NCBI GenBank assembly: GCA_042571705.1
Contig: JBHPFV010000001.1
Span: forward strand, 110,630-174,629
Reading direction: 5' to 3'
Source: Candidatus Omnitrophota bacterium
GTDB lineage: Bacteria; Omnitrophota; Gorgyraeia; JAFGHF01
DNA: 64,000 nucleotides
Both the position numbers and the translations under genes were made by a program. The notes below the pieces were generated by a model. That model was not told the DNA's origin and did no database searches. It saw only the letters and a program-made list of their open reading frames with translations. Position 1 is the first letter of the stretch; the number at the start of each line of letters is the position of its first letter. Positions 8,410-31,388 of the stretch are shown here, one piece after another.

Positions 8410-8414
8410 AGTTT

Positions 8415-9261: not shown

Positions 9262-9297
9262 AGGGGGCTAAAAATCAGGCGGCCTCCTATTTTTTTT
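9262..9297 (+). terminator. intrinsic terminator-like hairpin plus T-run
   Basis: AGGGGG (9262-9267) pairs with CCTCCT (9283-9288, one G-U), followed by T8 (9290-9297) and preceded by an A-run. Confidence 0.45.
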
Positions 9298-9326
9298 GTC
9301 ACTTTGACGAAAAAGTAAAAATATCC

Positions 9327-9355
9327 TTGACAAAGTAACTATTTTATTGTATTTT
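9327..9355 (+). promoter_or_regulatory. sigma70-like promoter (TTGACA-17 nt-TATTTT with TG)
   Basis: TTGACA at 9327-9332, TG at 9348-9349, TATTTT at 9350-9355. Confidence 0.5.
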
Positions 9356-9409
9356 TAAGTATAGGTAACTAAAAGTAAGTTTAAGGGGTACTATAGTGAG
9401 GATAATATA

Positions 9410-16271: not shown

Positions 16272-19200
16272 ATGAGAAAGATTAGCAAGAGTTTAGTCTG
16301 TTGTCTGATCTGGGTAGTCGTATTTATTATATCTGCCGCAGGCTTAGTAGCGGCCGATAGCTACTCAGATTATTTTTTAGAGGACAACGAACAGGAATTT
16401 GTCACTCCGGAGAATATTCGTGAGTTGGCCCGGATTCATTATTCTCGGGCCAGAGAGTTTTACCGCCGCGGGGAATATACCCAGGCCCGTAGAGAGTTTT
16501 CCGAGGTGCTCAAATATGACCCCAGGCATCAAGGCGCCCAGTGGTATTTGGAGGCCATCCAGCAGGAAATAGCCAAGCACGGCGTGAGCCCAATGCAGGT
16601 TGGTGAGTCAGGCCGGTTGACAAAATCAAAGAGCTTACAGCAAGCGTTAGATACAGTTGAAGGCAGCGACAATCAGGTTCGCGAACAGAAGGCTAAGCAG
16701 CAGGCGATTATCGATGCTGAGGAGAAAATGCAAGAGCAAAAGAGCCGGCGCTGGCGTAGCCAGGATCACAAAAGCAGGCTTAAATATCAGAAACAGCGTA
16801 AACAGCAACAAGCCCAGGCAGTTAAAGAAGCAATCGACGACCATCTGATCCAGGCCAAATACTTTTACCAAGAGGGCGATTTTGCTCAAGCTGAACAGGA
16901 ATGCCAACAGGCCCTGGAGCTGGATCCTAAAAATAAAGAGATTCGTAGCCTCCTGCAGAAGATTGCCCGGGCTAAAAGCCGGATCGCGGAACAAAAGCGC
17001 AAGACCAAAAGAGAAGCGGCCCTGCAGGCTCAAGCAAAATTAAGAAAGGAAAAAGCGCTTCGAACAAAGAAAGAAAGATCGGAGCAACTTAAGGCCAAAA
17101 AAGATAATCAAGAGCTAGAGCAGAAGATCAGGCTGCATTATAACCAAGGCAAGAAACATTTTAAAAATAAAGACTATATTGCCGCGCGTAAAGAATTTAA
17201 AGACATCTTGATTTTTGATCCCAAGAATAAATATGCCTTAAATGCCATAGAAAAAGTAGAAGCCACGATCCGAAAAGAAGAAAGGGAGGCTGAGCAAAAG
17301 CGGCGCCAGGAGGAAAAGCTGGCAGCCAAGCAGCGCAAAGAAACTATCGCCCAACATTTCGGCCAGGGTAAGATTTATGTTCATGAGAGAAAATATACTC
17401 AGGCCTTGGAAGAATTTAAGCAGGTTTTAATCCTTGATCCGGGTAATACCACAGCGGAAAAATTTATTATAGAATGCCGTAAACTATTGGTTAAGTCTCA
17501 GCGCCTGAAGAAAGAACACTTAAGTAAAGTCAAGCAGGCCGAGAAACAGGCCTTAAGGCAGGCCCAGCAGGAGTTAGCCAATCGGGCTGAGCAAAAGGCC
17601 CGCGAGGAAGAACGGGCCAGGCTAGAAGCCGAGCAAGAAACGAAAAAGCAACGCCAGGAAAAGATCAAGCAGCATCTGGCTCAGGGCAAAATTTACTGGC
17701 ATCAAAACCAATACGCCCAGGCTGTTGAAGAACTGAAACAGGTTCTAATTCTTGAGCCGGATCATCGCAGCGCCGAAAAACTACTTTTAAAGAGCAAGAA
17801 ACGCGTCGCCCTCGCCCAGCGCCGCGAACAAGAGCGCCTGGAAAAAGACAAGCAACGCCAGGCCCAGGCCTGGCGCCGCGAACAAGAGCGTCTGGAAGAA
17901 GAAAAACAACGCCAGGAGCGTGAGGCCGAGCGCGAAGCTGAGCAGGCTAGAATCGAGGCTGAACAAGCCAAAATCAAGGCTGAGAAAAAAGCCCAGGAAC
18001 AAAAACGCCAAAAAGAGTTGGCCCGGCAAAAACAGCTCAAAGAAACAATCAACTTTCATCTTGAAGGAGCCAAACATTACTTTAATCTACAGGAATTTGA
18101 CCAAGTTAAAGCTAAGCTTGATCAGGTGTTTAAACTCGATCCCGCAAACAAAACAGCCCGCCAATATCTATCCAGGATCGAGCAGACCATCAGGGAACAA
18201 GAGCGGGCTGAGGTTTTAGCTGAGCGCAAAGAAAAGCAACGCCAGGCCCAGGCCTGGCGCCGCGAACAAGAGCGTCTGGAAAAAGAAAAACAACGCCAGG
18301 AGCGTGAGGCCGAATTAGCCAGGATTAAGGCTGAAAAAGAAATTGAGCTTGCCAGAATCAAGGCTGAGAAAGAAGAGCGTTTGCGTCAAGAACGCTTAGA
18401 AAAAGAAAAGCAACGCCAAGAACGCGAGGCCGAACTCGCCAGAATCAAGGCTGAGCGCGAAGCTGAGCAAACCAGAATCGAGGCCGAGAAAGAGGTCCGG
18501 CTGGCTAAGATTAAAGCTGAGAAAGAAGAACGCCTGCGTCAACAGCTCCTGGCGAAAGAAAAGCAACGCCAAGAACGTCAGACCAAGCTAGCCAGGATCA
18601 AGGCCGAGAAAGAAGCTCAGGAACAAAAACGTCAAAAAGAGTTAGCCCGGCAAAAACAGCTCAAAGAAAAAATCAACTTTCATCTTGAAGGAGCCAAACA
18701 CAACTTTAATCTGCAGCAATTCGACCAGGTTAAAGCTAAGCTTGATCAGGTGTTTAAACTCGATCCCGCAAACAAAGCGGCCTACAAATATCTATCCAGG
18801 ATCGAGCAGACCATCAGGGAACAAAAGCAGGCTAAGGTTTTAGCTGAGCGTACAGAAAAACAGCGCCAGCTGCGTGAAGAGCTCCTGCGCAAAAAACGCG
18901 CAGCCGACACCCAACGCCGCGAACAAGAACGCCTGGTAGAAGAAAAGCGCCAAGCTAAACTTGAGGCTGAACTAGCCAGACAAAAAAGGCGCGAAAAAAC
19001 AATAGCGCGCTTCTTAACTCAAGGAAAAGTTTATTTTCATCAGGAAAAATATAAACAGGCGCTCAAAGAATTTAAGCAAGTTTTAATTGTCGACCAGGAT
19101 CATCCCCAGGCAGAAAAATATATCTTAAAATGCAGCAAGGCTATAGCCAGAGTCCAGCGCCGCGAACAGGAACGCCTGGCGAAAGAAAAACAGCGCCGGG

Positions 19201-22200
19201 AACAGGAGGCTGAAGCAGCCAGGATCAAGGCTGAGAAAGAAGCCCGACTAGCCAGGATCAAGGCCGATAAAGAGGCCCAGGAACAAAAACGCCAAAAAAG
19301 ACTAGCCCAACAGCGCCAGCTGGCCGAAAAGATCAATTTTCATCTCACCCAAGGGAAATATCATCTCCAGGAGCAGAAGTTCGACCTGGCTAAGCAGGAA
19401 TTTGGTAAGGTCCTTTTTCTGGACCACAACAACCAACCCGCCCAAAAATACCTGAGCCGGATGGAAAAGGCAGTTAAGCAACAAGCAGCTGCCCAAGCCC
19501 TCACTCAGCGCCGCGAACAAGAGCGCCTGGCAAAAGAAAAACAGCTCCGGGAACAGGAGGCTGAAGCAGCCAGGATCAAGGCTGAGAAAGAAGCCCGACT
19601 AGCCAAGATCAAGGCCGATAAAGAGGCCCAGGAACAAAAACGCCAGGAACAAGAAGCCCAGCAGCGCCAGCTAGCCGAAAAAATCAATATCCACCTCGAA
19701 GAAGGCAAATACTACTTTAAGGAGCAGGAATTCGCCCAGGCCCGATCAGAGTTTAAGCAAGTCCTGGCCCTGGACTTCAAAAACAAAACCGCCCGTGATT
19801 ATATCCATAAAATCGAAAAGAACTTAAAACAGGACCTGCCCCAATTTTCAGCCGCCGGAAAACTAGATACTAGCCGCGAAGTCAGGTTAGACAAGTTAAT
19901 GGCTGAGCAAATGCTGGAGTTGGAACAGACACTCCAGGGCTATCAGGATGTATTAAAAGGTGACCGCCTGGCCCAAAAGGAAGCCCGGCTCGATGACAAA
20001 GTCGCTTTGTATAGAACTAAACTGGCTAAGTTAGAGCAGCAGAAGCTGAAGATCGGGCAGATCGACCCGGATACCTATCAACAGGGCCTAACACTGCAAC
20101 AAGACGCTGAATACAAAAGTCTAGAGTTAAAGCTGACCAATAAGTTACGCCGGGCAAAGACAGAACAGCTGGAGAAGACCTTGCAGGCTGCGCTACAGCG
20201 CAAAGAGGCCGAGATAGGAGAAAAGATCAGGGCCTACGAAGCCAGTATCGATGAACTGAAAAAAGAAAAGGCCCGGCCATTCTATCAACAAGGTTTAGCC
20301 CAGCTTAAGAAGAAACAATACGCTCAAGCCAAAGAAAGCCTGGATAAAGCCCTGTCCATTTACCCTGATTATCAGCGTGCCAGAACAGCTCGCGAACAGA
20401 TTGATAATAAAGAGAAGCTGGAGATTTATTTCGTTGATGGCAAAGATCATTTTGAAAACCAGGAGTATGAGCAAGCTAGAAAGAAATTCGAAAAGATAGT
20501 TGAGCTTGATTATAATCATCAGCCGGCGCGAAAATATTTATCCCAGATTAAAGAACAACAACGGCGTTGGACAGAAAAGCAGCGCCAGGCCCAAGATCAG
20601 GCGGTAATCGAGGCCCAGAAAAAATTAGCTAAACAAAAGCAGCGCCAGCTAGCCGAAAAAATCAATATCCACCTCGAAGAAGGCAAATACTACTTTAAGG
20701 AGCAGGAATTCGCCCAGGCCCGATCAGAGTTTAAGCAAGTCCTGGCCCTGGACTTCAAAAACAAAACCGCCCGTGATTATATCCATAAAATCGAAAAGAA
20801 CTTAAAACAGGACCTGCCCCAATTTTCAGCCGCCGGAAAACTAGATACTAGCCGCGAAGTCAGGTTAGACAAGTTAATGGCTGAGCAAATGCTGGAGTTG
20901 GAACAGACACTCCAGGGCTATCAGGATGTATTAAAAGGTGACCGCCTGGCCCAAAAGGAAGCCCGGCTCGATGACAAAGTCGCTTTGTATAGAACTAAAC
21001 TGGCTAAGTTAGAGCAGCAGAAGCTGAAGATCGGGCAGATCGACCCGGATACCTATCAACAGGGCCTAACACTGCAACAAGACGCTGAATACAAAAGTCT
21101 AGAGTTAAAGCTGACCAATAAGTTACGCCGGGCAAAGACAGAACAGCTGGAGAAGACCTTGCAGGCTGCGCTACAGCGCAAAGAGGCCGAGATAGGAGAA
21201 AAGATCAGGGCCTACGAAGCCAGTATCGATGAACTGAAAAAAGAAAAGGCCCGGCCATTCTATCAACAAGGTTTAGCCCAGCTTAAGAAGAAACAATACG
21301 CTCAAGCCAAAGAAAGCCTGGATACAGCGCTGTCTATTTACCCTGACTACCAGCCGGCCAAAGACGCCCGGGAACAGATTGATACTGAGGAGAAAGTCCA
21401 GTGGCATCTTGCCCAAGGCGAATATTATCTTGGGAAACAAGAGTACGCCCGGGCGCGATTAGAGTTTGAAAAAGTTTTCAAATTAGACTACAGAAACCAA
21501 CAGGCCAAAGATTCGCTGAACAAGATTAACAGCCAAGTCCGAGAGGTAGCGACTGCCCAAGCGCAAGCGAGAAAAGAGGAAACAGCGCGCCGGCAGCAGG
21601 CAAAAATAAATTTTCATCTTAATCAGGGCAAATACTTCTTTGTTGAAGAAAAATATAGCCAGGCCAGATCAGAGCTTAAGAAGGTCCTGGCCTTAGACAG
21701 CACAAACAAACCGGCCCAAGACTATTTAAGCAAAGTTGGCAAAGCGGCCAAGGAAAACGCCCGTGCTGAAGTCATGGCCAGGGCTGAGGAAAAACAGCGC
21801 CGGCAGGAACAATTGCGTCTAGCTAAGATTAAAGCAGGGCAGCTAGCCAAAGAGAAAAGGCGCCAGGAGGAATTGGCCAAGAAACGCGAGCTGGAAAGAA
21901 GGGTTGATTTTCACCTGGCCCAGGGCCGCTATCTTCTCAGCCAGGAAAATTACGCTATGGCCAAAGAAGAATTTAATAAAATCCTGGCCTTGGATTTCGA
22001 GAACAAACAGGCCGAAAGGTATTTAAATAAAATTACCGAAATAGTTGAGAAAGAAAAGCGCAATGAACAGCTGGCCAGAGAGAAAGCAAGGCAACGCCGG
22101 GCCAAAGAAACCGCCGAGAAAAAGCGCCAGGAGGAATTGGCCCGGGAACGGGAGCTGGAAAAAAGGATCGCTATTTACATCAGAAAGGGCAGGCTCTACT

Positions 22201-24689
22201 ATGATCAACAAAAATACGAGCAGGCCCAGATGCAGTTTAATAGTGCCCTGAACTTAGACCATAAAAATAGATTAGCTAACAGCTACTTGCAGAAAATTCA
22301 GGCACAGCGAGAGCGCTTCGAGAAAGAGCAGCAACGAGCCATTGTCTTGGCCGAGGAGAGATTAAAGCAGGAACAAAAGCGAAAAGAGAAAGAAACCGCT
22401 GAGCAAGAGCGCCAGAAGCAATTGGTCAAGAAGCGCGAACTGGAAAAAAAGATTAAATTTCACCTGGTCCAGGGCCACTACTGCTTTAGCCGTCAAGACT
22501 ACGCTCTAGCCCGAAAAGAATTTAATAAAATCCTGGCCTTGGATTTCGAGAACAAACAGGCCGAAAGGTATTTAAATAAAATTACCGAAATAGTTGAGAA
22601 AGAAAAGCGCAATGAGCAGCTGGCCAGAAAGAAAGCTAAGCAACGCCGGGCCAAAGAAGCCGCCGAGCAAGAGCGCCAGAAGCAATTGGCCAAGAAACGC
22701 GAGCTGGAAAGAAGGGTTGATTTTCACCTGGCCCAGGGCCGCTATCTTCTCAGCCAGGAAAATTACGCTATGGCCAAAGAAGAATTTAATAAAATCCTGG
22801 CCTTGGATTTCGAGAACAAACAGGCCGAAAGGTATTTAAATAAAATTACCGAAATAGTTGAGAAAGAAAAGCGCAATGAACAGCTGGCCAGAGAGAAAGC
22901 AAGGCAACGCCGGGCCAAAGAAACCGCCGAGAAAAAGCGCCAGAAGCAATTGGCCAAGGAACGCGAGCTGGAAAGAAGGATTGATTTTCACCTGGCCCAG
23001 GGCCGCTACTACTTAAGCCGGCAAGACTACGCTCTGGCCAAAAAAGAATGCGATAAGGCGCTGGTTTTAGATTACCAAAATAAGCGGGCTAAAAAATACT
23101 TAAATAAAATTGCCAAGGCAATGGAAGCAGAAGCTCGGCAAGAGGTGTTAGCTAAAAAAAGTAAATTGGAAAAAAAGGTTAGCGTTCATCTTGACCAGGG
23201 CAAGGCTTACTTGCTAGAAGTAGACTATCAAAATGCGATCAGAAAGTTCAGCCAGGTTTTAGTGTTGGACCAGGACAATAAGCAGGCCCAAAAATATTTG
23301 AATAAAATTGCCAAAGCAATTGAGGCCGAAGCGCAGGTCAAAAAACAGACCCTCGCCCAGCGCCGCGAACAGGAGCGCCTGGAAAAAGAAAGACAGCGCC
23401 AAGAGAACATTAATCAGCATCTGGCTCAGGGAAAGATTTACTTTCACCAGGGCAAGCACCAAGAGGCGATTGCCGAATTTGGCAAGATTTTGTTTTTTGA
23501 TCCTGAACACGCTGATGCCGAGCAGTATATGTTACGTTCTAAACAAGTCTTTTCCAGAGATAAGCCTCAACAGCAGCTTGACCAGAAAACGGTGCAGGAA
23601 CAGCGCCAGCGCGAACAGGTGCAGACCAAGCTGCTGGAAGGGCAGATGACTAAGCTTAAACAGGTGTTAGAAGAATATGAACAGGCCCTGGAGGAGAAAC
23701 TGGCGCAAAAAGAAGTTGTCTCCTCTCCGCGATTTGCCAAATTTGAGTCCCGGGCCACTCAATTAGAAGAGGAAAAGCAGAAAATTGAGCTGGAGATCGT
23801 CCGCGAAGAAGCGGAGCTAAAAATGGCTCAGCAAGAACGAGAGAAACTTGAGACTGAATTAGGGCAGCTGCGCCAGGAACAAGAACAGTCAATAATCGAA
23901 GAATGGCAAAAATATCAAGTGAGTTTTCAGAATGAATTTGAGCGGCTGACGCAGAAAGAAGCCGAACTCGAACAAAAGATTAAAGATTACGAAGCTAAGA
24001 TAGAACAGCTGCAAATGTTTCCCTCTGTTGCCGTCGTCGCCCCGGCAGCCCGCGGCGTTGAATATGAGCCGCAATACTTAGTTGGCGACGCCGAAGCAGC
24101 GGATGGTTTAAAAGAAAAGGCCGCCCCAGCTGATAGTGTAGAGACAATTATGCTTAAACTGAAGATGGAACAATTGCATAATCAGGTCGAAGGCTTGATG
24201 CAGGAAAAAGCCAAGCCGTTTTACGAACGCGGCCGGACCCATTTAAAGAAGGAAAGATATGCCCAAGCCAGAGATGATCTTGAGCAGGCCCTAGCTATTT
24301 ATCCTAACTATACGCAGGCCCAGCGGGCGATTGATGCAATTGAACAGGTGGAGAAGATCGAGATCCATCTTTCCGAAGGTAAATTCTATTATGGCGAAAA
24401 AAACTATCAAAAAGCCAAACAGGAATTCACTAACGCCCTGGAGTTAGATTACAAACATAGAGAAGCCCGTAAATATCTGCGTCGGATAGAGAAGGCGCTG
24501 AAGGATGGAAAATCCGGTCCGCGGGAAAAGAGGAGATCCGTCTCCAGTCGGGAAACCAGGGAGCTTGAGCAAAAAAGACTCAAAGATATTAAAGACTTTT
24601 ATGAAAAAGGAAAATTTTATTTTGGTCAAGGCCTCTATCAAGAAGCCGTGGTTTGTTTTGAGAAAGTTATTGAATTAGAAAAGCAGTAG
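16272..24689 (+). CDS. giant (2805-2820 aa) exported repeat protein: about 26 isolated TPR-like units separated by E/R/K/Q-rich helical spacers
   Basis: A single uninterrupted ORF. ATG 16272 gives MRKISKSLVCCLIWVVVFIISAAGLVAA-DS (signal peptide or anchor); the ORF also opens at 16227. The recurring unit is I.FHL..GKYYF....Y..A..EF..VL.LD..N..A..YL.KI, alternating with tracts such as RREQERLEKEKQRQEREAELARIKAEKE. Confidence 0.85.
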   Translation: MRKISKSLVCCLIWVVVFIISAAGLVAADSYSDYFLEDNEQEFVTPENIRELARIHYSRAREFYRRGEYTQARREFSEVLKYDPRHQGAQWYLEAIQQEIAKHGVSPMQVGESGRLTKSKSLQQALDTVEGSDNQVREQKAKQQAIIDAEEKMQEQKSRRWRSQDHKSRLKYQKQRKQQQAQAVKEAIDDHLIQAKYFYQEGDFAQAEQECQQALELDPKNKEIRSLLQKIARAKSRIAEQKRKTKREAALQAQAKLRKEKALRTKKERSEQLKAKKDNQELEQKIRLHYNQGKKHFKNKDYIAARKEFKDILIFDPKNKYALNAIEKVEATIRKEEREAEQKRRQEEKLAAKQRKETIAQHFGQGKIYVHERKYTQALEEFKQVLILDPGNTTAEKFIIECRKLLVKSQRLKKEHLSKVKQAEKQALRQAQQELANRAEQKAREEERARLEAEQETKKQRQEKIKQHLAQGKIYWHQNQYAQAVEELKQVLILEPDHRSAEKLLLKSKKRVALAQRREQERLEKDKQRQAQAWRREQERLEEEKQRQEREAEREAEQARIEAEQAKIKAEKKAQEQKRQKELARQKQLKETINFHLEGAKHYFNLQEFDQVKAKLDQVFKLDPANKTARQYLSRIEQTIREQERAEVLAERKEKQRQAQAWRREQERLEKEKQRQEREAELARIKAEKEIELARIKAEKEERLRQERLEKEKQRQEREAELARIKAEREAEQTRIEAEKEVRLAKIKAEKEERLRQQLLAKEKQRQERQTKLARIKAEKEAQEQKRQKELARQKQLKEKINFHLEGAKHNFNLQQFDQVKAKLDQVFKLDPANKAAYKYLSRIEQTIREQKQAKVLAERTEKQRQLREELLRKKRAADTQRREQERLVEEKRQAKLEAELARQKRREKTIARFLTQGKVYFHQEKYKQALKEFKQVLIVDQDHPQAEKYILKCSKAIARVQRREQERLAKEKQRREQEAEAARIKAEKEARLARIKADKEAQEQKRQKRLAQQRQLAEKINFHLTQGKYHLQEQKFDLAKQEFGKVLFLDHNNQPAQKYLSRMEKAVKQQAAAQALTQRREQERLAKEKQLREQEAEAARIKAEKEARLAKIKADKEAQEQKRQEQEAQQRQLAEKINIHLEEGKYYFKEQEFAQARSEFKQVLALDFKNKTARDYIHKIEKNLKQDLPQFSAAGKLDTSREVRLDKLMAEQMLELEQTLQGYQDVLKGDRLAQKEARLDDKVALYRTKLAKLEQQKLKIGQIDPDTYQQGLTLQQDAEYKSLELKLTNKLRRAKTEQLEKTLQAALQRKEAEIGEKIRAYEASIDELKKEKARPFYQQGLAQLKKKQYAQAKESLDKALSIYPDYQRARTAREQIDNKEKLEIYFVDGKDHFENQEYEQARKKFEKIVELDYNHQPARKYLSQIKEQQRRWTEKQRQAQDQAVIEAQKKLAKQKQRQLAEKINIHLEEGKYYFKEQEFAQARSEFKQVLALDFKNKTARDYIHKIEKNLKQDLPQFSAAGKLDTSREVRLDKLMAEQMLELEQTLQGYQDVLKGDRLAQKEARLDDKVALYRTKLAKLEQQKLKIGQIDPDTYQQGLTLQQDAEYKSLELKLTNKLRRAKTEQLEKTLQAALQRKEAEIGEKIRAYEASIDELKKEKARPFYQQGLAQLKKKQYAQAKESLDTALSIYPDYQPAKDAREQIDTEEKVQWHLAQGEYYLGKQEYARARLEFEKVFKLDYRNQQAKDSLNKINSQVREVATAQAQARKEETARRQQAKINFHLNQGKYFFVEEKYSQARSELKKVLALDSTNKPAQDYLSKVGKAAKENARAEVMARAEEKQRRQEQLRLAKIKAGQLAKEKRRQEELAKKRELERRVDFHLAQGRYLLSQENYAMAKEEFNKILALDFENKQAERYLNKITEIVEKEKRNEQLAREKARQRRAKETAEKKRQEELARERELEKRIAIYIRKGRLYYDQQKYEQAQMQFNSALNLDHKNRLANSYLQKIQAQRERFEKEQQRAIVLAEERLKQEQKRKEKETAEQERQKQLVKKRELEKKIKFHLVQGHYCFSRQDYALARKEFNKILALDFENKQAERYLNKITEIVEKEKRNEQLARKKAKQRRAKEAAEQERQKQLAKKRELERRVDFHLAQGRYLLSQENYAMAKEEFNKILALDFENKQAERYLNKITEIVEKEKRNEQLAREKARQRRAKETAEKKRQKQLAKERELERRIDFHLAQGRYYLSRQDYALAKKECDKALVLDYQNKRAKKYLNKIAKAMEAEARQEVLAKKSKLEKKVSVHLDQGKAYLLEVDYQNAIRKFSQVLVLDQDNKQAQKYLNKIAKAIEAEAQVKKQTLAQRREQERLEKERQRQENINQHLAQGKIYFHQGKHQEAIAEFGKILFFDPEHADAEQYMLRSKQVFSRDKPQQQLDQKTVQEQRQREQVQTKLLEGQMTKLKQVLEEYEQALEEKLAQKEVVSSPRFAKFESRATQLEEEKQKIELEIVREEAELKMAQQEREKLETELGQLRQEQEQSIIEEWQKYQVSFQNEFERLTQKEAELEQKIKDYEAKIEQLQMFPSVAVVAPAARGVEYEPQYLVGDAEAADGLKEKAAPADSVETIMLKLKMEQLHNQVEGLMQEKAKPFYERGRTHLKKERYAQARDDLEQALAIYPNYTQAQRAIDAIEQVEKIEIHLSEGKFYYGEKNYQKAKQEFTNALELDYKHREARKYLRRIEKALKDGKSGPREKRRSVSSRETRELEQKRLKDIKDFYEKGKFYFGQGLYQEAVVCFEKVIELEKQ
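19660..21324 (+). repeat. two nucleotide-perfect 687-bp direct copies inside the giant gene (19660-20346 and 20638-21324; period 978 nt = 326 codons)
   Basis: Base-by-base comparison of the two stretches found no mismatch. The flanks differ at 19659/20637 and 20347/21325. Confidence 0.85.
21871..22943 (+). repeat. two perfect 260-bp direct copies (21871-22130 and 22684-22943; period 813 nt = 271 codons) plus a third ~100-bp perfect partial copy (22516-22615)
   Basis: Direct comparison. All copies are in frame and encode VDFHLAQGRYLLSQENYAMAKEEFNKILALDFENKQAERYLNKITEIVEKEKRNEQ... Confidence 0.8.
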
Positions 24690-24730
24690 GCCGCAGGTAG
24701 GTAGGGGGTAGAAAAAAAGGAGGCGCGAAA

Positions 24731-25366
24731 ATTTTTAGGGCTATTTTAATTGTATCTTTTGTTTTTGTTTTTGTCGCACCGGTTGAGGTGTTTGGAGAAA
24801 TTGTGGATACAGGTTTTGAGAATCGCCATACTTACCGCGTGGATACGCGCAGCGACGACGATGATTACAGTTTTTACATCACCCGGGCCGCAGGCTATCT
24901 GGATTTCAATTGCCCGCTATTAGAAAGGACTTTCCGGATTGCCCCTTTTTTTGAATATCAGTCTAATCTTGATACCAATACTTGGTGGCGTAAAGAGCTG
25001 GGCGCGGAGATTGGCACCAGTTTCTTCAACGATATTTTTTACTACGGCGCCTCACTGCAATATGTCTGGCAGAAGCTGGACAATTACCCCGTTGAAGATA
25101 CCACCGAGACTGCTGAGTGGGAATCCCGGTTTGTGATTACTCCGCCGATAAATTGGTGGATTTTTGGCGACACATTATTTTTGCGGCTGTTTAATGAATA
25201 TACCGTTGATCTTGAACGCGGCCAAGGCACATTTAATCAAGTCGGGGTAGTCTTTGACTGGCAGGTTTTGGATTGGTTGCGGCTGCCGATTGGTTACCGG
25301 CATGTAGACCGAGTGCACGATTACGACGCCGACACCTTGGAATTCTCTGTTGTGTTTAGCTTTTGA
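24731..25366 (+). CDS. small outer-membrane beta-barrel protein; probable non-canonical ATT start
   Basis: The frame is open from 24713, and the first canonical start (GTG 24788) would remove the hydrophobic N-terminus. ATT 24731 lies 7 nt after GAGG (24720-24723) and yields MFRAILIVSFVFVFVAPVEVFG... The protein has alternating strand patterns and ends ...TLEFSVVFSF (OMP C-terminal Phe). Confidence 0.45.
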   Translation: MFRAILIVSFVFVFVAPVEVFGEIVDTGFENRHTYRVDTRSDDDDYSFYITRAAGYLDFNCPLLERTFRIAPFFEYQSNLDTNTWWRKELGAEIGTSFFNDIFYYGASLQYVWQKLDNYPVEDTTETAEWESRFVITPPINWWIFGDTLFLRLFNEYTVDLERGQGTFNQVGVVFDWQVLDWLRLPIGYRHVDRVHDYDADTLEFSVVFSF

Positions 25367-25400
25367 GCCAGAGGCGCCAGGGGAGAAAGGGGACGTAAAG

Positions 25401-25763
25401 ATGTTAGCCGATTTCTTAGAGAAAAGAAGGCATTCCAGGTTTGATTTGCGGGTTCCTTTGCGTTATCGCAGGATTCAGTCCGCCACGCAGGAATTTAAAG
25501 GCTCGCTGATAAAAGACTTAAGCCAAGGGGGACTAAGAATAGGCACCTTTGAATTTTTGCCGATTAACTTAAGGCTGGCCATGGAGATACCTTTGATCGC
25601 GGGGCTGAAGTCAGTTGAAGGTACAGCTCGGGTGGCTTGGGTGAAGAAGTCAAATTCAAGCCAGCAGTATGATGTGGGAGTAGAGTTTGAGAGCCTCAAC
25701 CATGGCGACCAGCAACAGATTACCAAGTTTCTTTACGCACGTTCGGAAGAAAAACCGGTTTAA
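25401..25763 (+). CDS. stand-alone PilZ domain protein (c-di-GMP receptor type)
   Basis: ATG 25401 follows GGGGAGAAAGGGGA. Both canonical motifs are present: KRRHSRF (RxxxR) and DLSQGGLRI (DxSxxG). Confidence 0.75.
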   Translation: MLADFLEKRRHSRFDLRVPLRYRRIQSATQEFKGSLIKDLSQGGLRIGTFEFLPINLRLAMEIPLIAGLKSVEGTARVAWVKKSNSSQQYDVGVEFESLNHGDQQQITKFLYARSEEKPV

Positions 25764-25767
25764 TAAA

Positions 25768-26727
25768 ATGAAACGAAACTTTATTTCAACAATTACAATT
25801 TTAGCGCTGTTATTAATTGGGGCGCAGACGGCTTGCGGCTATTGGATGTGGACTCCGGAGACAGGCAAGTTCGTTAACCCTAAGTATGCCGTCAAGCAGA
25901 CGCCGGAGAAGCAGTTCGAATGGGCGCTGAACTTCTATCAGGCCGAGGATTATAAAAAGGCCATCGACGAATTCAAAAAGTTAATTAACAACTATCCGCT
26001 TTCTAAATTAGCCAGTGAGGCCCAGTTTTATATAGCCGACATTTACGAAAATTTAGGTAATTATTATCAAGCCTTTGAAAATTATCAAATGGTAATTGAT
26101 AAATATCCCTTTACCGAACGGGTCGAGGAAGTCATCGAAAGAGAGTACCGGATCGGCAACCTGTTCTATACAGGTCAGAAAGATAAGCTCTTAGGTATGC
26201 CGATTTTACCCGCCAAGCCGCGGGCGATCGAGGTGTTTACTCAGGTAGTCGAGAACGCCCCTTACGGGGAGTACGCCGATATTGCCCAATTTAAACTAGG
26301 TGTTTGCTACATGGATCTGAAGGACTACATCAATGCCGCTTTGGCCTTTAAGAAGATCATTGAAAATTATCCGCAGAGCGCGTTGGTCGATGACGCCAAA
26401 TATAAAATCGCCATGTGCGCGGCCAATTCCTCAAGCGGCCCGGAATATAACGAAGAGGATACAGATAACGCGATCAAAGAATTTAATGACTTTGTCAGGC
26501 GGTATCCTGATAGCCAAATGGAGAAAGAGGCCCGCCAATTTATCGACAGCTTAGAAGCGCAAAAGGCGGAGAAGATATTTAATATCGCTCAATTTTATGA
26601 GAAACGGAAAAATTCAAAAAGCGCCTCGATTTATTATGAAGAGATATTAGAGGAGTATCCGCATAGCGAATGGGCGGTCAAGGCGCTGGAGAAATTGCAA
26701 ATCATCCGTAAACAGGAAGAAAGATAG
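25768..26727 (+). CDS. bamD: outer membrane protein assembly factor BamD (YfiO-type TPR lipoprotein)
   Basis: ATG 25768 gives MKRNFISTITILALLLIGAQTAC-GY (lipobox). TPR-rich sequence typical of BamD (…FEWALNFYQAEDYKKAIDEFKKLINNYP…). Confidence 0.7.
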   Translation: MKRNFISTITILALLLIGAQTACGYWMWTPETGKFVNPKYAVKQTPEKQFEWALNFYQAEDYKKAIDEFKKLINNYPLSKLASEAQFYIADIYENLGNYYQAFENYQMVIDKYPFTERVEEVIEREYRIGNLFYTGQKDKLLGMPILPAKPRAIEVFTQVVENAPYGEYADIAQFKLGVCYMDLKDYINAALAFKKIIENYPQSALVDDAKYKIAMCAANSSSGPEYNEEDTDNAIKEFNDFVRRYPDSQMEKEARQFIDSLEAQKAEKIFNIAQFYEKRKNSKSASIYYEEILEEYPHSEWAVKALEKLQIIRKQEER

Positions 26728-26738
26728 CGGGTAATTTT

Positions 26739-27281
26739 ATGATCAGAAAATTTGTGTTGGCGCTATTGTTGGCCTTAAGTACAGCAGGATGCGGTTATAC
26801 CACCGGCTCACTCTTACCTGAGCATCTGAAGACTATTCGCGTCCAACCGTTTCGCAATAAGATTCAATTGACCGCTGAGGTGCCGGCGGACCAATACCGT
26901 TTTCGCAGCTATACCCCCAATTTAGAGACTGATATCACTAAGGCAGTGTTGGATAGATTCCTCACCGACGGAAATTTAAAAATTGTCGAAGAAGCGAACG
27001 CCGATTTGATCTTAACCGGAGTATTAGTCGATTATTTGCGCCAGCCTGTGCGCTACGGCTCTGACAACGAAGACGTGGATGAATACCGGGTCAGTATCAT
27101 TTGCGCGGTGGAAGTTAAGGATGTCCGGGACGGCTCAACATTATGGCAAGATCCCCGGGTGATCGGAGACTCGACTTATAATGTTTCAGGGACATACGCG
27201 GTTAGCGAAGCGGCAACCATAGATAACGCTGTTGCCGATTTAGCCAGACGCATAGTTAACCGCACCATTGAAGGATGGTAA
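26739..27281 (+). CDS. lptE: LPS-assembly lipoprotein LptE-like
   Basis: 180 aa with lipobox LSTAGC-GYTTGS. LptE-like size and sequence, and the conserved lptE-holA adjacency. Confidence 0.6.
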   Translation: MIRKFVLALLLALSTAGCGYTTGSLLPEHLKTIRVQPFRNKIQLTAEVPADQYRFRSYTPNLETDITKAVLDRFLTDGNLKIVEEANADLILTGVLVDYLRQPVRYGSDNEDVDEYRVSIICAVEVKDVRDGSTLWQDPRVIGDSTYNVSGTYAVSEAATIDNAVADLARRIVNRTIEGW

Positions 27282-28147
27282 AGCTCAAACAGTCTTCAGT
27301 TTACCTGCTCGCCGGAACTGAACAATTCTTAAAACAGGAAAGTTTAGCGCAGATTAAATCTGCCTGCCTCGATAAAGAATCTTCCGATTTTAACTTTAAC
27401 GTCTTTTATGCCGGCTCAGACAGTTTAGAAAAGATTTTAAGCTGTGCCCAGACTAAGCCTTTTTTAGGTAAAAAAAGGCTGGTTTTGGTTTACCAAATTG
27501 AACAGTTTTCCGCGGCCGACAAAAAACTCATCCTTCCCTATCTAAAAACCGATTTATCCCAGACCGTGCTGGTTTTAGAGACCGGGCAAAATTATCTTAA
27601 TCAAGGATTTTTTGCCGAACTCACTCAAGGCGCGCAGGTAATTTTTTGCCGGCCCCTGGAAGGGCCAGCGGCGCTGGCCAGCTGGATTAAAAGGTACCTG
27701 GCGCCGGAGGACAAAGAAATTGCCGAAGATGCCCTGACGCTTTTACTTGGCCATCTCGGCGGCAATTTACAATCCTTGGCTGCGGCTTTAGAAAACCTGA
27801 TCTTATATACTGGAGGGCGCCGGAAGATTGAACGGGCTGATGTGGAAGTGTTGGTGGGTATAGATCTCAGCGCCAACGCCTTTGAATTGTTTGAGGCCGT
27901 ATTGGGTGGGGATCGCGATCGCTGTTTTGAAATTCTGGATAGTCTGCTAAAAAAAGGAGTCAATTCAGCGCAGATCATCGGGGCCTTTGCCCATAAGCTA
28001 ATTACGCAAAGAAACAGCCCCTTTTTTAACGAGTATCTTTTAGATTTACAGAGGACTGACAGCGAGATTAAAGGCGGCCGGCAGACTCAACGCTTGGGGC
28101 TGGAGCTGATGTTAACCAGATTAACCAACAGGCGCTTAAGCGTTTAA
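27275..28147 (+). CDS. holA: DNA polymerase III subunit delta
   Basis: 290 aa. VYLLAGTEQFLKQESL...KPFLGKKRLVLV is typical of HolA, and the gene follows lptE as in many diderms. Confidence 0.75.
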   Translation: MVKLKQSSVYLLAGTEQFLKQESLAQIKSACLDKESSDFNFNVFYAGSDSLEKILSCAQTKPFLGKKRLVLVYQIEQFSAADKKLILPYLKTDLSQTVLVLETGQNYLNQGFFAELTQGAQVIFCRPLEGPAALASWIKRYLAPEDKEIAEDALTLLLGHLGGNLQSLAAALENLILYTGGRRKIERADVEVLVGIDLSANAFELFEAVLGGDRDRCFEILDSLLKKGVNSAQIIGAFAHKLITQRNSPFFNEYLLDLQRTDSEIKGGRQTQRLGLELMLTRLTNRRLSV

Positions 28148-28404
28148 GCTTTTTTTAGGCTGCGCACCAGGCGGGATTTTTTGCGGGAGGCCTTTTTTTT
28201 GTGGATTACTTTTTTGTTGGCCGCTTTATCTAATTTCGAGACCAATTGAGTAAGTACTTTTTTTGCCTGTTCAATCTGTTTCTTGGCCATCAGGTCTAAG
28301 AAATTTTTGTTGAGTGTCTTCAGTTCCGAGATAGCCTGGATATTTGTGTGATGTCTTTTTTTGGCCTTGCGTAGTTCTTTGAAGGCCGATTTTTTTATTG
28401 GCAT
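28144..28404 (-). CDS. rpsT: 30S ribosomal protein S20
   Basis: MPIKKSAFKELRKAKKRHHTNIQ...; the ORF extends to 28437 but the S20 N-terminus starts at 28404. Its stop codon overlaps the holA stop (TTAA). Confidence 0.85.
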   Translation of the reverse strand: MPIKKSAFKELRKAKKRHHTNIQAISELKTLNKNFLDLMAKKQIEQAKKVLTQLVSKLDKAANKKVIHKKKASRKKSRLVRSLKKA

Positions 28405-28458
28405 TTTTAAACCCCTTTGTTTTGGGAATGATAGCATATTCGAGGGTTTTTGTCAAGC

Positions 28459-30015
28459 ATGCAAAGCAAATCCTTAATTAAATCCGCGCGGGTGATTGGT
28501 TTGGCCACCTTGGCCAGCCGGATCTTAGGCTTTACCCGTGACGTCATCATTGCTAAGTTGTTCGGTACCGGGGTTCGGGCTCAGGCCTTTGTGGTCGCTT
28601 TTAGGATTCCTAATCTCTTACGCCGGCTGGTTGGGGAAGGCAGCACTAATAGCGCGGTAGTGCCTGTTTTGGCCCGGCTCCATCAACAAGACCGGCACCA
28701 TGAGTTTTGGCAGGTGGCCGGCTGTCTTTTGAATGTCTTGCTGGTGTTCTTGGCGGTGTTGACATTATTAGGCGAGCTGTTTGCGCCCTATATTGTGCGA
28801 ATTCTGGCCCCCGGCTTTATGCAGGATCCGGCAAAATTAGACCTGACCATCCGGATGACCAGGTTTATGTTTCCTTATCTGCTTTTGGTGGGTTTATCGG
28901 CCTACGCGATGGCAGTATTAAATTCTTTAAAGCATTTTAGCTTACCGGCCCTGGCCCCTTGCATGCTGAACATCAGTTTGATTGTGGCCAGCTTATTGCT
29001 TTGCCCGCGACTGGCTGAGCCGGTTGACGGTCTGGCTTGGGGGGTATTAATCGGCGGATTTTTGCAGCTGGCTATTCAGGTGCCTTTACTGATTAAAAAA
29101 GGTTTATTTAAAGAGAAAAGCTCTGGATTTATTCATCCCCGGGTCAAGGAGATCGGCAGGTTATTCCTGCCGCGCACCTTAGGTATCGCGGTTTACCAGG
29201 CCAATATCTTTATTGACAGTATCTTGGCTTCTTTGGCCTGGATTGCCGGCCAGGGGGCGGTAGCGGCGCTCTATTTCGCCAGCCGTCTGGTGCAGTTTCC
29301 CTTGGCCTTGTTTGGCTTGGCTTTGGCCCAGGTGGTTTTGCCGGCCTTATCCGGAATGGCGGCGCAAAAAGACTTTGTTCAATTGAAAAACACAGTTTCT
29401 TTTTCGCTGCGCAGCGTATTGATCATGATGGTTCCGGCCACGGTGGGGATGATGGTTTTGGCCCGTCCGTTAATTTATATCTTATTTGAGCGGGGAAGTT
29501 TTTCCAGCTATTCTACAGACATGACCGCCGCGGTATTATTGTTTTATTGCCTGGGCTTGACTTGTTATGCCGGCATAAAAATATTAGCCTCATGTTTCTA
29601 TTCGCTTAAAGACACCTTTACTCCGGTGAAGATCGCTTTCTTTTCCTTATTAATTAATTTAGTCTTGAATCTGATTTTAATGCGTCCGCTTCAGGTAGCC
29701 GGATTAGCTTTAGCTACGGCGATCGCGGCCGGTTTTAACATGCTGATGCTTTTATCTATTTTAAGTAAAAAAGTGGGCTCGTTTGGCGAGCTACGGCCGA
29801 CTTTAAAAAAAGTAATTATCGCCGCATTTTGTATGGGCGCGGTAATATGGTTTTTCTTTTATCAGACCCAGGTGCTCACGGCCACAAAGCTCCTGCTGAG
29901 TGTAAAATTGTGCATTTCTATTTTGTTGGGGATCAGCACCTATCTAGCGATGTTAAAGATTATTGATCCGGAGGCAGCCGAGTTATTTTACAGATGGATA
30001 TTAAAAAGAAAGTAA
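28459..30015 (+). CDS. murJ: lipid II flippase MurJ (MviN)
   Basis: MQSKSLIKSARVIGLATLASRILGFTRDVIIAKLFG... with a multi-TM MOP-family profile. TTG 28450 is an alternative start. Confidence 0.85.
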   Translation: MQSKSLIKSARVIGLATLASRILGFTRDVIIAKLFGTGVRAQAFVVAFRIPNLLRRLVGEGSTNSAVVPVLARLHQQDRHHEFWQVAGCLLNVLLVFLAVLTLLGELFAPYIVRILAPGFMQDPAKLDLTIRMTRFMFPYLLLVGLSAYAMAVLNSLKHFSLPALAPCMLNISLIVASLLLCPRLAEPVDGLAWGVLIGGFLQLAIQVPLLIKKGLFKEKSSGFIHPRVKEIGRLFLPRTLGIAVYQANIFIDSILASLAWIAGQGAVAALYFASRLVQFPLALFGLALAQVVLPALSGMAAQKDFVQLKNTVSFSLRSVLIMMVPATVGMMVLARPLIYILFERGSFSSYSTDMTAAVLLFYCLGLTCYAGIKILASCFYSLKDTFTPVKIAFFSLLINLVLNLILMRPLQVAGLALATAIAAGFNMLMLLSILSKKVGSFGELRPTLKKVIIAAFCMGAVIWFFFYQTQVLTATKLLLSVKLCISILLGISTYLAMLKIIDPEAAELFYRWILKRK

Positions 30016-31385
30016 AAAATTTTCCCGATTCACCGGGCGTGTATTTAATGAAAGACACAGACGGTGAGATTCTTTACGTGGGCAAGGCCTGTTCGTTAAG
30101 AAAACGGGTCGGTTCTTATTTTCAGAAACCACCCACGGCCAAGACCCAAGAACTCATCCGGCGCTCTCGCGATATCGAATACCTTGCGACCTCCTCCAGC
30201 GCCCAGGCGCTGTTGTTGGAAAATATCTTAATCAAAAGGCATCAGCCTTTTTATAACGCCGCGCTCAAAGACGATAAAAGTTATCCCTATGTAAAAATCA
30301 GCGCCGATGAATATCCGGGTATCTCCATTGTCAGGGGAGAAAAAGTAAAAGGGGCGCGTTATTTCGGTCCTTACACCAGCGTCAAGTTGTTGAAAACAGC
30401 CTTAAAGGCCATCCGTCCGCTATTTCCTTTTCGCAGCTGCCGCCGGCTGCCGAAAAAACCCTGCCTTTATTTTCAGCTTAAACTTTGTCCGGGGATCTGC
30501 GCTGGGAAAGTTGAGCCTGGGGCCTACCGCGATACTTTAAGGCAGTTGGAACTTTTTCTTGAAGGCCGGCACAATGAATTGCTGCGCCATTTGCAGGATC
30601 AGATGCGGCAGGCCGCTGGCTTGAAGCAGTTTGAGCAGGCCGCTAAGTTAAGAGACAGGATAAATTCTTTGGTTGAGATTATTTCTCAGACCAAGCAGCC
30701 CAGTGGCGCCGATTTAATTGTCGAGTTGCAAAAGACCTTAGGCCTGTCTGAGCCGCCATATCGAATTGAGGCCTTTGATATCTCCGAAATCTCCGGGGCC
30801 GGTTTATCCGGCTCGATGGTTAGTTTCTTATCCGGCTGGCCGGACAAGAACAATTATCGCAAATTTAAGATCAGGACAGTCAAAGGAATTGATGATTACG
30901 CGATGATCGCCGAGCTGCTGCGGCGTCGCTACGCCCCGGAAAAAAGAAAAGTTAACTCACCCTTGCCGGACTTAGTGATTATTGACGGCGGAAAAGGACA
31001 TCTCAACTTGGCCCAAAAGACCTTGAAAACCTTGGGCCTAACTGAACTTCCGGTGATTGCCTTAGCCAAGCGCTTAGAGACTATTTACGCTTGCGGCGGT
31101 AAGGTAATTAATTTACCCGGAGATTCAAAGTTACTGCATCTTTTGCAAAGGATTCGCGATGAGGCCCATCGCTTCGCGATTTCTTATCATCATAAATTAA
31201 GGGAGAAATCTCTGCGTCAGTCGGCGCTGGATGGCATCGGCGGTGTGGGAGAAAAGAGAAAAAAACTGCTGCTGCGCCATTTTAAAACCGTCTCGGCGCT
31301 TAAACAAGCGAGCCGGGCGCAGTTACTAAAAGTAAAAGGGATCGACCTCCGGACCGCCGAAAATATCAGTAAACATTTTAAATGA
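29994..31385 (+). CDS. uvrC: excinuclease ABC subunit C (compact, 463 aa)
   Basis: GIY-YIG (PGVYLMKDTDGEILYVGKA), UVR motif (FEQAAKLRDRINSL), RNase H-like endonuclease region (RIEAFDIS...VIIDGGKGHL) and a C-terminal (HhH)2. Confidence 0.85.
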   Translation: MDIKKKVKNFPDSPGVYLMKDTDGEILYVGKACSLRKRVGSYFQKPPTAKTQELIRRSRDIEYLATSSSAQALLLENILIKRHQPFYNAALKDDKSYPYVKISADEYPGISIVRGEKVKGARYFGPYTSVKLLKTALKAIRPLFPFRSCRRLPKKPCLYFQLKLCPGICAGKVEPGAYRDTLRQLELFLEGRHNELLRHLQDQMRQAAGLKQFEQAAKLRDRINSLVEIISQTKQPSGADLIVELQKTLGLSEPPYRIEAFDISEISGAGLSGSMVSFLSGWPDKNNYRKFKIRTVKGIDDYAMIAELLRRRYAPEKRKVNSPLPDLVIIDGGKGHLNLAQKTLKTLGLTELPVIALAKRLETIYACGGKVINLPGDSKLLHLLQRIRDEAHRFAISYHHKLREKSLRQSALDGIGGVGEKRKKLLLRHFKTVSALKQASRAQLLKVKGIDLRTAENISKHFK

Positions 31386-31388
31386 ACA

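Follow-up and report, generated by a model that had tools for sequence, protein, structure and literature searches.

What kind of protein is made by an 8.4-kb gene in which tetratricopeptide repeat (TPR) units alternate with long tracts rich in glutamate, arginine and lysine (ER/K), and where does such a gene come from? The question is raised by a 64-kb stretch of contig JBHPFV010000001.1 of a Candidatus Omnitrophota bacterium (assembly GCA_042571705.1), hereafter the window, meaning the whole stretch of 64,000 nucleotides analysed. The initial annotation, made from the letters alone, had described the product of this giant TPR gene as an exported 'beads-on-a-rod' protein, and had missed a homology. 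In light of the comparisons reported here the protein is no orphan invention of that sort. It is rather the orthologue, by position and by sequence, of the periplasmic arm that forms the N-terminus of the type IV pilus secretin (Amuc_1098/PilQ) typical of the Planctomycetes-Verrucomicrobia-Chlamydiae (PVC) superphylum. This identity, and the evolutionary history proposed below, form the part of our explanation that we hold with high confidence.

The frame is open on the + strand from the ATG at 16227 to the stop codon at 24687-24689 (2820 codons), and residue numbers are counted from this ATG (2820 numbering) unless the 2805 numbering is stated. ATG 16272 is more likely to be the start, because it lies 25 nt past the stop of the preceding gene, has a purine-rich stretch before it, and corresponds to the start annotated in a near-identical NCBI protein (P0001). 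An uninterrupted 8.4-kb reading frame beginning with a signal peptide or anchor had been announced by the initial annotation; the open frame and a signal-peptide-like segment were both found, and orthologues of the protein have typical Sec signal peptides. The segments on which the comparison leans are the following.

16272..24689, + strand: giant TPR/ER-K gene, 2805 aa from ATG 16272, 2820 aa if ATG 16227 is used
16272..16352, + strand: signal-peptide-like N-terminus (MRKISK, a 21-aa hydrophobic run, then LVA/AD)
16422..16568, + strand: first TPR unit (aa 66-114), 53-67% identical in all orthologues regardless of length
21216..21893, + strand: match to the Amuc_1098-family profile, covering tandem pair 2 (aa 1673-1770), the unit at aa 1792 and the following spacer
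24582..24689, + strand: last TPR unit (KDIKDFYEKGKFYFGQGLYQEAVVCFEKVIELEKQ) and stop codon, 56-76% identical in all orthologues

A homologue search with the whole protein was swamped by low-complexity candidates and gave 6 matches; a profile of the N-terminus performed better. Four relatives found by the whole-protein search (P0002-P0005; 1,632-2,020 aa) carry Secretin, STN and Secretin_N domains. They share with the giant protein the signal peptide, the first TPR unit, ER/K repeats of 11 residues, coiled-coil inserts followed by a 'KEKAxPFY…' tandem pair, middle units of the types 'KKHFKNKDYIAARKEFKDIL' and 'HLAQGKIY', and a last unit of the form 'KDFYxKGKxYFxxGLYxEAxxCFEKVIELE'. Past this last unit the relatives run on with 'GNPxIYYTPQAK…' for ~700 residues, which include further TPRs and the secretin domains (in P0003, STN at 1495-1530, Secretin_N at 1577-1628 and Secretin at 1708-1892). 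The window reading frame stops two codons past 'VIELE', exactly at the junction between arm and secretin of the relatives. The arm itself, built of ER/K helices, TPR units and coiled-coil inserts, is ~900-1,400 aa long in sister Omnitrophota lineages.

Pfam detected no Secretin (PF00263), STN or Secretin_N domain in the giant protein. Only 100 bp separate its stop codon from the next gene, a gap too small to hold a secretin just downstream. None is encoded in the 64-kb window either, where tblastn with the C-terminal 700 aa of a relative gave TPR matches only. PilM/N/O, GspF and pseudopilin genes are similarly missing from the window, according to searches including all the pilus-cluster proteins of two secretin-bearing loci (L002 and L003).

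The NCBIfam model of the Amuc_1098 family (NF042912) matches the protein with E=1.1e-30, profile positions 30-257 being aligned to aa 1649-1874 (2805 numbering); the match ends at aa 1889 in the 2820 numbering, short of the next unit. The score, 106 bits versus a curated cut-off of 750, denotes the N-terminal part of the family and not a full-length member, while the relatives also match the C-terminal part of the model, plus the GspD and PilQ models. Amuc_1098, the PilQ of Akkermansia muciniphila (907 aa), combines three N-terminal TPRs with a secretin domain at 650-876, and is the most abundant outer-membrane protein of this organism, located there by immuno-electron microscopy (PMC4960237). 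Both Amuc_1098 and the giant protein come from the PVC superphylum, and both begin with a signal peptide, after which come TPR units of the same type. They differ since the former has three TPRs and a secretin, the latter 26 units, ER/K spacers, and neither secretin nor nearby pilus genes. Unlike the giant protein, the Omnitrophota TPR-ER/K-secretin fusions (P0002-P0005, L002-L006) have 6-9 units and then ~700 aa more, and lie in a cluster of pilM-N, pilO and pseudopilin genes. One of them has been labelled 'trichohyalin' by the Joint Genome Institute.

The position of the gene can be judged from its neighbours.

13424..14974, + strand: regulator of 516 aa with PilZ, helix-turn-helix (HTH) and ROK (NagC/Mlc-like) parts, kept upstream of a secretin-less orthologue (locus L007) at 63% identity
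15068..16246, + strand: 392-aa protein with an N-terminal transmembrane anchor, a coiled coil and a small C-terminal domain, 45% identical in L007
24788..25366, + strand: p192, a small protein ending in ...FSF, putative small outer-membrane barrel, conserved, matching no family
25350..27281, + strand: PilZ, BamD-like (YfiO) and LptE genes, a downstream synteny common to the secretin loci; no PilZ called in L007

The window gene, L002 and L003 are followed by the same set of genes, encoding p192, PilZ, a BamD-like protein, LptE, holA, MurJ, UvrC and a release factor (RF), with identities of 46-80%. All loci examined encode a homologue of p192 (192-240 aa) on the downstream side of the TPR or TPR-secretin gene; p192 itself directly follows the giant gene, and one small gene intervenes in several of the other loci. 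This constant association makes p192 a possible partner of the TPR or TPR-secretin protein, in which case it may be a small outer-membrane barrel. A secretin is present in all five other loci anchored on p192 or on the TPR protein. Besides L002 and L003 these comprise three Omnitrophota/PVC loci anchored on p192, in which the 3' end of a secretin gene invariably lies upstream of p192. The contig search anchored on p192 yielded only 3 short contigs, because metagenome-assembled genomes (MAGs) break at the TPR gene.

Upstream, the secretin loci L002 and L003 carry T2SS-F and pseudopilin genes, a PilM-PilN fusion, a PilO/Amuc_1100-like gene and a gene for a 170-aa protein (p170). In place of these pilus genes, the giant gene is preceded by the PilZ-ROK regulator and by the gene for the 392-aa coiled-coil protein; the latter adjoins the secretin-less orthologue upstream, and occupies the place held in secretin loci by PilM-N, PilO-like and p170 genes. 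The pilus-assembly cluster that goes with the Amuc_1098 family is therefore found in L002 and L003, not in the window. The context reported by the initial annotation, a membrane coiled-coil protein upstream and the small FSF-ending protein, PilZ and BamD downstream, was confirmed throughout.

Both upstream proteins were considered as diverged pilus components. For the 516-aa protein, kinship to PilM was rejected: it combines PilZ, HTH and a ROK domain of the NagC/Mlc type, and has no BLAST match to PilM-N. For the 392-aa product, descent from a PilO- or PilP-like protein is possible but unsupported, with hhalign probabilities <1% and generic coiled-coil matches only in searches of PDB and NCBIfam. 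In the secretin loci, the PilM-PilN fusion, the PilO-like protein, which matches the Amuc_1100 family, and the 170-aa protein are encoded at 6997-9996 in L002 and 2557-5542 in L003, and link the Omnitrophota loci to the Amuc_1098-1102 pilus-like cluster of Akkermansia.

The giant gene is not the only one of its kind to lack a secretin. A search profile built on the N-terminal 100 residues recovered secretin-less orthologues of 166, 168, 170, 172, 177, 189, 229, 300 and 322 aa (P0007-P0011, P0036, P0045, P0081 and P0109). These mini-orthologues share the N-terminus, and all end where the giant protein ends (…CFEKVIELGGNP or …ELEKRP; …CFEKVIEL…). They contain the first and last units only, or these plus one unit of the 'HLAQGK.Y' type, hence 2-3 units. 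Secretin-less forms thus make up at least 9 distinct sequence clusters, and occur at a second locus with a conserved neighbourhood. This is L007, a 136-kb contig in which a 177-aa mini-orthologue has the same surroundings as the giant gene. An outer-membrane-barrel protein, GH94 (glycoside hydrolase family 94), PilZ-ROK (63%) and coiled-coil (45%) genes precede the TPR gene, and a BioY-like gene, the p192 homologue (60%), BamD, LptE, holA, S20, MurJ and UvrC follow it. Identity to the window on holA, MurJ and UvrC is 57, 70 and 68% for L007 versus 50-51, 64 and 63-65% for L002 and L003. This advantage of L007 over L002 and L003 does not extend to BamD, LptE and RF, and for MurJ the secretin-bearing L004 comes even nearer to the window, over a partial alignment of 224 aa. 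Given these mixed identities, the loci are not clearly ordered.

Across orthologues of 166-2,020 aa the two end units keep the identities listed above, and what varies is the middle between them, from ~50 to ~2,670 residues, with 24 extra units in the giant gene. The giant protein is ~16-fold expanded relative to the orthologues of 166-322 aa. A survey of unit number among homologues, which the initial annotation had proposed as a check, gave 2-3 units in the mini-orthologues, 6-9 in the secretin fusions and 26 here. Internal unit types are common to the giant protein and the secretin-bearing forms. The simplest history suggested by the sequences would therefore be that a multi-unit secretin arm lost its secretin, and subsequently contracted in one lineage and was hyper-expanded in the lineage of the window.

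How the expansion was achieved is visible in the gene. A unit profile, seeded from 15 units found by regular expression, identified exactly 26 units, with E-values per unit of 1e-5 to 1e-28. The 24 distinct unit sequences align over 49 columns with zero gaps, and all 26 units retain the TPR signature and the exact 49-aa length. Pfam TPR_2 (E=3e-82; 264 bits, cut-off 27) and TPR_1 (139 bits, cut-off 27.8) place the protein in the TPR clan. Consensus designed TPR (CTPR) proteins are matched by the unit profile with E down to 1e-80. The profile also matches the last TPR together with the capping or extended helix of CTPR3 and FKBP51/52, and because of this the unit is seen as one canonical 34-residue TPR plus a capping helix. 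The count of about 26 made by eye in the initial annotation was accordingly exact, and the ~43-aa motif described there is the core of the 49-aa unit. The units were also said to be isolated; 20 of them are, but 6 form three adjacent pairs, or 2-TPR tandems, with no spacer in between (aa 1347+1396, 1673+1722, 2660+2709).

18189..18665, + strand: longest pure ER/K spacer (aa 655-813, 159 aa), with 11-residue ELARIKAEKEx repeats and no helical hydrophobic periodicity
19660..20416, + strand: internal duplication copy 1 (758 bp), 98% identical to 20638-21394
19824..20264, + strand: coiled-coil-like insert 1 (aa 1200-1346), from its composition; AlphaFold2 (AF2) predicted local distance difference test (pLDDT) 32-65
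20265..20558, + strand: tandem TPR pair 1 (aa 1347-1444), compact domain of 2 TPRs and cap, AF2 pLDDT >90
20638..21394, + strand: internal duplication copy 2 (758 bp), pair of 19660-20416
20802..21242, + strand: coiled-coil-like insert 2 (aa 1526-1672), from composition and the duplication map
21852..23049, + strand: 264-bp tandem array (88 aa, unit plus 39-aa spacer), 4.5 copies of 85-97% mutual identity
23547..24203, + strand: coiled-coil-like insert 3 (aa 2441-2659), with 3.6-residue hydrophobic periodicity
24204..24497, + strand: tandem TPR pair 3 (aa 2660-2757), from the unit profile

Gaps between units are ≥15 aa in 22 of 25 cases. Spacers range from 17 to 219 aa, more widely than the 30 to >100 aa first reported, and most have the composition then described (E+R+K 43-67%, E+R+K+Q+A 71-92%, no proline or glycine). 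Three longer Q/L/E-rich, coiled-coil-like inserts, likewise noticed at the outset, were located at aa 1200-1346, 1526-1672 and 2441-2659, and are composed of 29-32% E/R/K, with 28% hydrophobic residues. In the ER/K spacers the hydrophobic periodicity typical of coiled coils (3.5-3.67 residues) does not rise above shuffled controls; in insert 3 a periodicity of 3.6 residues is significant. Pairs of opposite charges at i/i+3,4 number 0.25-0.44 per residue in the ER/K spacers versus 0.11-0.13 in the inserts. In their charge pairs, lack of proline and glycine and lack of a heptad or hendecad seam, the ER/K spacers have the sequence features of single alpha-helix (SAH) domains. The whole protein carries a net charge of +144 (K+R 633, D+E 489). 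A net positive charge was considered as a conserved trait, serving for example DNA or polyanion binding, and dropped, as the spacers of orthologues vary from +0.6 to +24 per 100 aa.

In addition to the 758-bp repeat and the 264-bp array, the gene holds many older duplications of unit-plus-spacer blocks, with all copies in frame. The extra units arose by repeated in-frame duplication of such blocks. Between paralogous blocks diverged enough to be analysed, the ratio of nonsynonymous to synonymous substitution rates (dN/dS) is 0.15-0.77 in all but one case, the spacers of one recent pair, where an omega of 1.5 stands on very few changes; the two most divergent block pairs are saturated for this measure.

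Repeats of this sort invite the suspicion that the length of the gene is an artefact, produced by mis-assembly of the repeats of a much shorter gene. The 758-bp repeat at 98% identity and the 264-bp tandem array could feed such an error, and the exact giant protein is not on record elsewhere, according to an exact database look-up. An independent short-read assembly of the same species (MAG GCA_042569555.1) breaks precisely at the 264-bp array. Yet its contig 1 matches the window at 6272-18613 (99.92%) and 19247-21925 (98.6%), and includes both 758-bp copies before it ends where the array starts. Contig 2 matches 22889-35677 (99.16%), with an identical C-terminus, …FEKVIELEKQ and stop, and the same downstream genes. 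The MAG therefore reproduces 5.7 kb at the 5' side and 1.8 kb at the 3' side, hence a protein of at least 2,571 aa. The uncorroborated part is only 963 bp (21926-22888, within the array), the repeat copies have diverged, and all are in frame. An assembly artefact is thus extremely unlikely, and the worry about assembly expansion expressed in the initial annotation has been largely answered, the 963 bp excepted.

The same comparison revealed a difference. At 18614-19246 the two assemblies carry a rearranged block, ~261 bp (~87 aa) longer in the MAG. Variation at the level of modules is thus present in a population whose flanking sequences are 99.9% identical. Between 18614-21925 of the window and 12343-15915 of the MAG locus (L001) intragenic identity is 98.6%, versus 99.92% in the flanks. 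The lower identity and the rearranged block suggest that the repeat region evolves faster, by gene conversion or unequal crossover, unless they reflect assembly noise.

A gene that ends exactly where the secretin module of its relatives begins might also be a functionless remnant, a 5' fragment which stayed open by chance after secretin loss and whose repeats expanded neutrally, by slippage or unequal recombination. The most recent duplications (97-98%) have been little tested by selection, and one such pair has the omega of 1.5 in its spacers, on very few changes. Moreover, T is very scarce on the coding strand (AT skew 0.32-0.44), so that in-frame stops are less likely to arise. The remaining two frames, instead, are full of stops, so that any frameshift would truncate the protein, and still 8.4 kb are open in two assemblies. 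Truncated forms with the same two ends are known from at least 9 clusters and from L007, and the truncated gene has therefore persisted across species. All 26 units keep the TPR signature and the 49-aa length, and older paralogous blocks have the dN/dS values of 0.15-0.77 given above. On these grounds, we regard a remnant as improbable.

If the gene is functional, the shape of its product becomes the issue. AF2 was run on aa 1881-2366 as a single sequence (pLDDT 70, predicted TM-score 0.30). The model repeats a pattern of a 44-74-residue helix, a turn, a helix of 15-16 residues, a loop, and the next long helix, each long helix starting as the cap helix of a unit, running through the spacer and finishing as helix A of the unit that follows. 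Foldseek found no global superposition on continuous TPR superhelices (TMq ≤ 0.15, root mean square deviation 14-60 Å). A conventional continuous superhelix, the structure that would have contradicted the initial annotation, is thus disfavoured, at the level of prediction, by the long helices and the lack of superposition. For insert 1 and tandem pair 1, modelled from a six-sequence alignment, pLDDT is >90 in the 2-TPR tandem, which locally matches ordinary TPR domains in Foldseek, and 32-65 in the insert, which is helical with breaks. Spacers and inserts, as modelled, agree with single-helix rods and amphipathic inserts respectively; this leaves the monomeric state unproven. The ~900 residues of pure ER/K spacer, at 0.15 nm each, would extend over ~135 nm if helical, a rough bound that amounts to several widths of the periplasm and is comparable in order of magnitude with the cell, most Omnitrophota cells being <0.45 µm (PMC10066038).

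Putting these data together, our overall explanation, held with moderate confidence, is that the gene encodes a Sec-exported, all-helical, non-enzymatic protein of the envelope, acting as a jointed periplasmic tether or scaffold. The tether or scaffold function taken on its own is a more tentative proposal. According to it, the protein would be a long, stiff but jointed element in the periplasm. The two conserved end units would work as specific docking modules, one side facing the 392-aa membrane coiled-coil protein and the other an outer-membrane component such as p192, as candidates. The ER/K helices would be SAH-type spacers setting the distance, and the internal single-TPR knuckles would provide joints and low-affinity sites for protein-protein contacts or self-association. 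Conservation of the end units, together with a middle varying by whole modules, suggests that length is evolvable and set by unequal recombination. Of the role proposed in the initial annotation, envelope-spanning or attachment, the envelope part fits the signal peptide and the neighbours, but spanning the envelope is physically unlikely, because ~135 nm of ER/K length far exceed the width of the periplasm.

Several points weigh against this explanation. Function, localisation and partners of the giant protein are all inferred, and the rest of the genome may still contain a secretin gene. The 21-residue hydrophobic run at the N-terminus may stay uncleaved and serve as an anchor, instead of being a signal peptide. 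By hhalign, the 392-aa coiled-coil protein has no relation to the PilO-like and 170-aa gene products of the relatives, and continuity with the pilus alignment complex is therefore unsupported. AF2 predictions from single sequences or very shallow alignments, with pLDDT of ~70, cannot separate a monomeric SAH from an oligomeric coiled coil, and 11-residue ER/K repeats with regularly placed L, I and A might support oligomerisation. A single TPR with its cap is too small to form the usual concave peptide groove, which makes docking by single units uncertain. The number of copies in the 963-bp stretch of the tandem array, the only part of the gene outside MAG coverage, is uncorroborated.

The homology itself might suggest a system split in two, in which secretin and pilus machine are encoded elsewhere, and the giant protein works in trans as a pilotin-like factor or a peripheral scaffold. 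In the relatives the TPR arm is covalently joined to the secretin, and the stand-alone PilZ gene has been kept downstream of the giant gene. Ottman et al. likened the TPR region of Amuc_1098 to pilotins (PMC4960237), and type IVa pilus loci are widespread in Omnitrophota (PMC10066038). The type_IV_pilW model gives a weak match, 51.9 bits, which is below its cut-off of 154 and does not qualify the protein as a pilotin. In contrast, the 64-kb window lacks secretin, PilM/N/O, GspF and pseudopilin genes, the pilus genes of the syntenic locus have been replaced both here and in L007, and no lipobox (L-[AS]-[GA]-C) was seen at the end of the hydrophobic run of the protein. It is hard to see why a pilotin would need 26 units, when 2 suffice for the short orthologues. 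A split system is accordingly unlikely.

TPR proteins with a role in secretin assembly include the pilotins PilF, PilW and Tgl, which are lipoproteins carrying about six contiguous TPRs, and also FimV and HubP. FimV has discontinuous single TPR motifs with capping helices, set between long non-TPR stretches; its TPRs are cytoplasmic, and its linkers acidic and disordered. The exopolysaccharide exporters BcsC, PelB and PgaA carry a periplasmic N-terminal TPR region on an outer-membrane beta-barrel porin, but their TPRs are continuous superhelices without ER/K rods. Their design, a TPR arm plus an outer-membrane channel, is mirrored in the relatives of the giant protein and in a TolC-type protein described below (P0014). 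The giant protein, unlike them, has no channel.

A likeness to TolA domain II and to CpoB/YbgF had been pointed out in the initial annotation, and proved to be one of composition only. TolA has an N-terminal transmembrane anchor and a C-terminal TolA/TonB-type domain; CpoB has an N-terminal trimeric coiled coil and a C-terminal contiguous TPR domain, and is encoded in the tol-pal operon. Pfam and NCBIfam detected no TolA, TonB_C or CpoB family in the giant protein, and no tol-pal genes adjoin its gene. Kinship was consequently rejected, and TolA and CpoB are kept as compositional analogies. The spacers are similarly alike in composition to the SAH of myosin VI/X and caldesmon, and to TolA domain II and CpoB/YbgF, with no sequence-family relationship. 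We know of no SAH that alternates with single TPRs 20 or more times. No description of the spaced-TPR/ER-K architecture, in Omnitrophota or elsewhere, was found in the literature searched.

The architecture is not confined to this locus. An exhaustive profile search returned 1,069 proteins at E≤1e-10, including other very long proteins with spaced units: P0018 (2,915 aa, many spaced units) from a PVC-group bacterium, P0015, P0017, P0020 and P0022 (about 2,000-2,300 aa), and P0024 (1,281 aa) from Omnitrophota. P0014 (2,406 aa; L009 8001-15221) has 27 spaced TPR units followed by a TolC-like outer-membrane efflux protein (OEP) domain at aa 1970-2400. Its gene lies in a resistance-nodulation-division (RND) efflux operon, with a ROK gene before it, and an RND adaptor and two AcrB-like pumps after it. 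The secretin fusions and P0014 together mean that spaced-TPR arms sit on at least two unrelated outer-membrane channels, and also exist free-standing.

These forms lead to a broader proposal: single-TPR knuckles and ER/K rods would constitute a distinct, length-tunable periplasmic arm of PVC bacteria and Omnitrophota. The arm would be bolted onto unrelated outer-membrane channels (the secretin of P0002-5, the TolC-like duct of P0014), or be free-standing. The free arm would have been stretched 16-fold in the window lineage, to a contour approaching that of the whole nanobacterial cell. Its role would be structural, for example that of a strut, lattice or ruler resembling a cytoskeleton in the periplasm, and not that of a pilus accessory; unequal recombination would actively change its length from strain to strain. 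With all its parts taken jointly, this proposal is possible but doubtful.

The great length may alternatively be taken as a sign that the protein crosses the outer membrane and forms a surface or extracellular fibre, an adhesin or coat for host attachment. Omnitrophota are thought to be host-attached nanobacteria, and giant proteins have been proposed as their adhesins (PMC10066038; bioRxiv 10.1101/2023.11.21.568195). The published giant proteins have, however, coding sequences >20 kb and a different architecture (same sources). The contour length may be comparable to cell size, and a possible surface-fibre gene set lies upstream at 6089-12715. In the relatives, by contrast, the same region is the N-terminus of a secretin, and Pfam found no adhesin-type domains in the giant protein. 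No secretion system is encoded nearby. To our knowledge, the secretin N-terminus is periplasmic in all characterised secretins. The odds are therefore poor that the protein is a fibre of this kind, and the periplasmic tether or scaffold is the reading retained here.

The 6089-12715 block deserves a description of its own. It encodes four paralogous secreted proteins (166-196 aa) and a 273-aa secreted protein, with no Pfam match, and then a 1,101-aa protein with a signal peptide, a TPR unit of the giant type (E=5e-9), a Cu_amine_oxidN1 domain and C-terminal SdrD_B/CarboxypepD_reg domains. It may be a surface-fibre or usher-like system, and the conspecific MAG conserves the entire block. Genes for GH94 (cellobiose/chitobiose phosphorylase-type), GH116 and a sugar-binding protein occupy 148-5155, at the 5' end of the window. 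A GH94 gene is also next to PilZ-ROK in L007, and a sugar-utilisation module therefore travels with the secretin-less TPR locus. The product of the PilZ-ROK gene (13424-14974) is a putative sugar regulator that would respond to cyclic di-GMP; a plain ROK gene precedes the otherwise unrelated giant TPR-TolC gene in L009. A scan for promoters and terminators placed a single promoter-like site before the PilZ-ROK gene, and gave nothing convincing as a terminator between this gene and the end of the giant gene, which is weakly suggestive of an operon running from PilZ-ROK to the giant gene.

Secretins, together with their TPR partners, lie at the heart of the machines for pili, secretion and DNA uptake. 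The proteins compared here provide a natural series of one arm, channel-fused, free and minimal (2 units), or free and hyper-expanded (26 units), with end modules conserved throughout. The series bears on the role of the N-terminal TPR region of PVC-type PilQ: conservation of the end modules points to them as the seat of binding specificity, and the existence of free forms suggests that the function of the arm is separable from the channel. The alternation of TPR joints and ER/K rods is a natural polymer which looks designed, useful for studies of repeat-protein evolution and of single-alpha-helix mechanics. In the ultra-small cells of Omnitrophota, the giant TPR protein may represent an element of envelope architecture.

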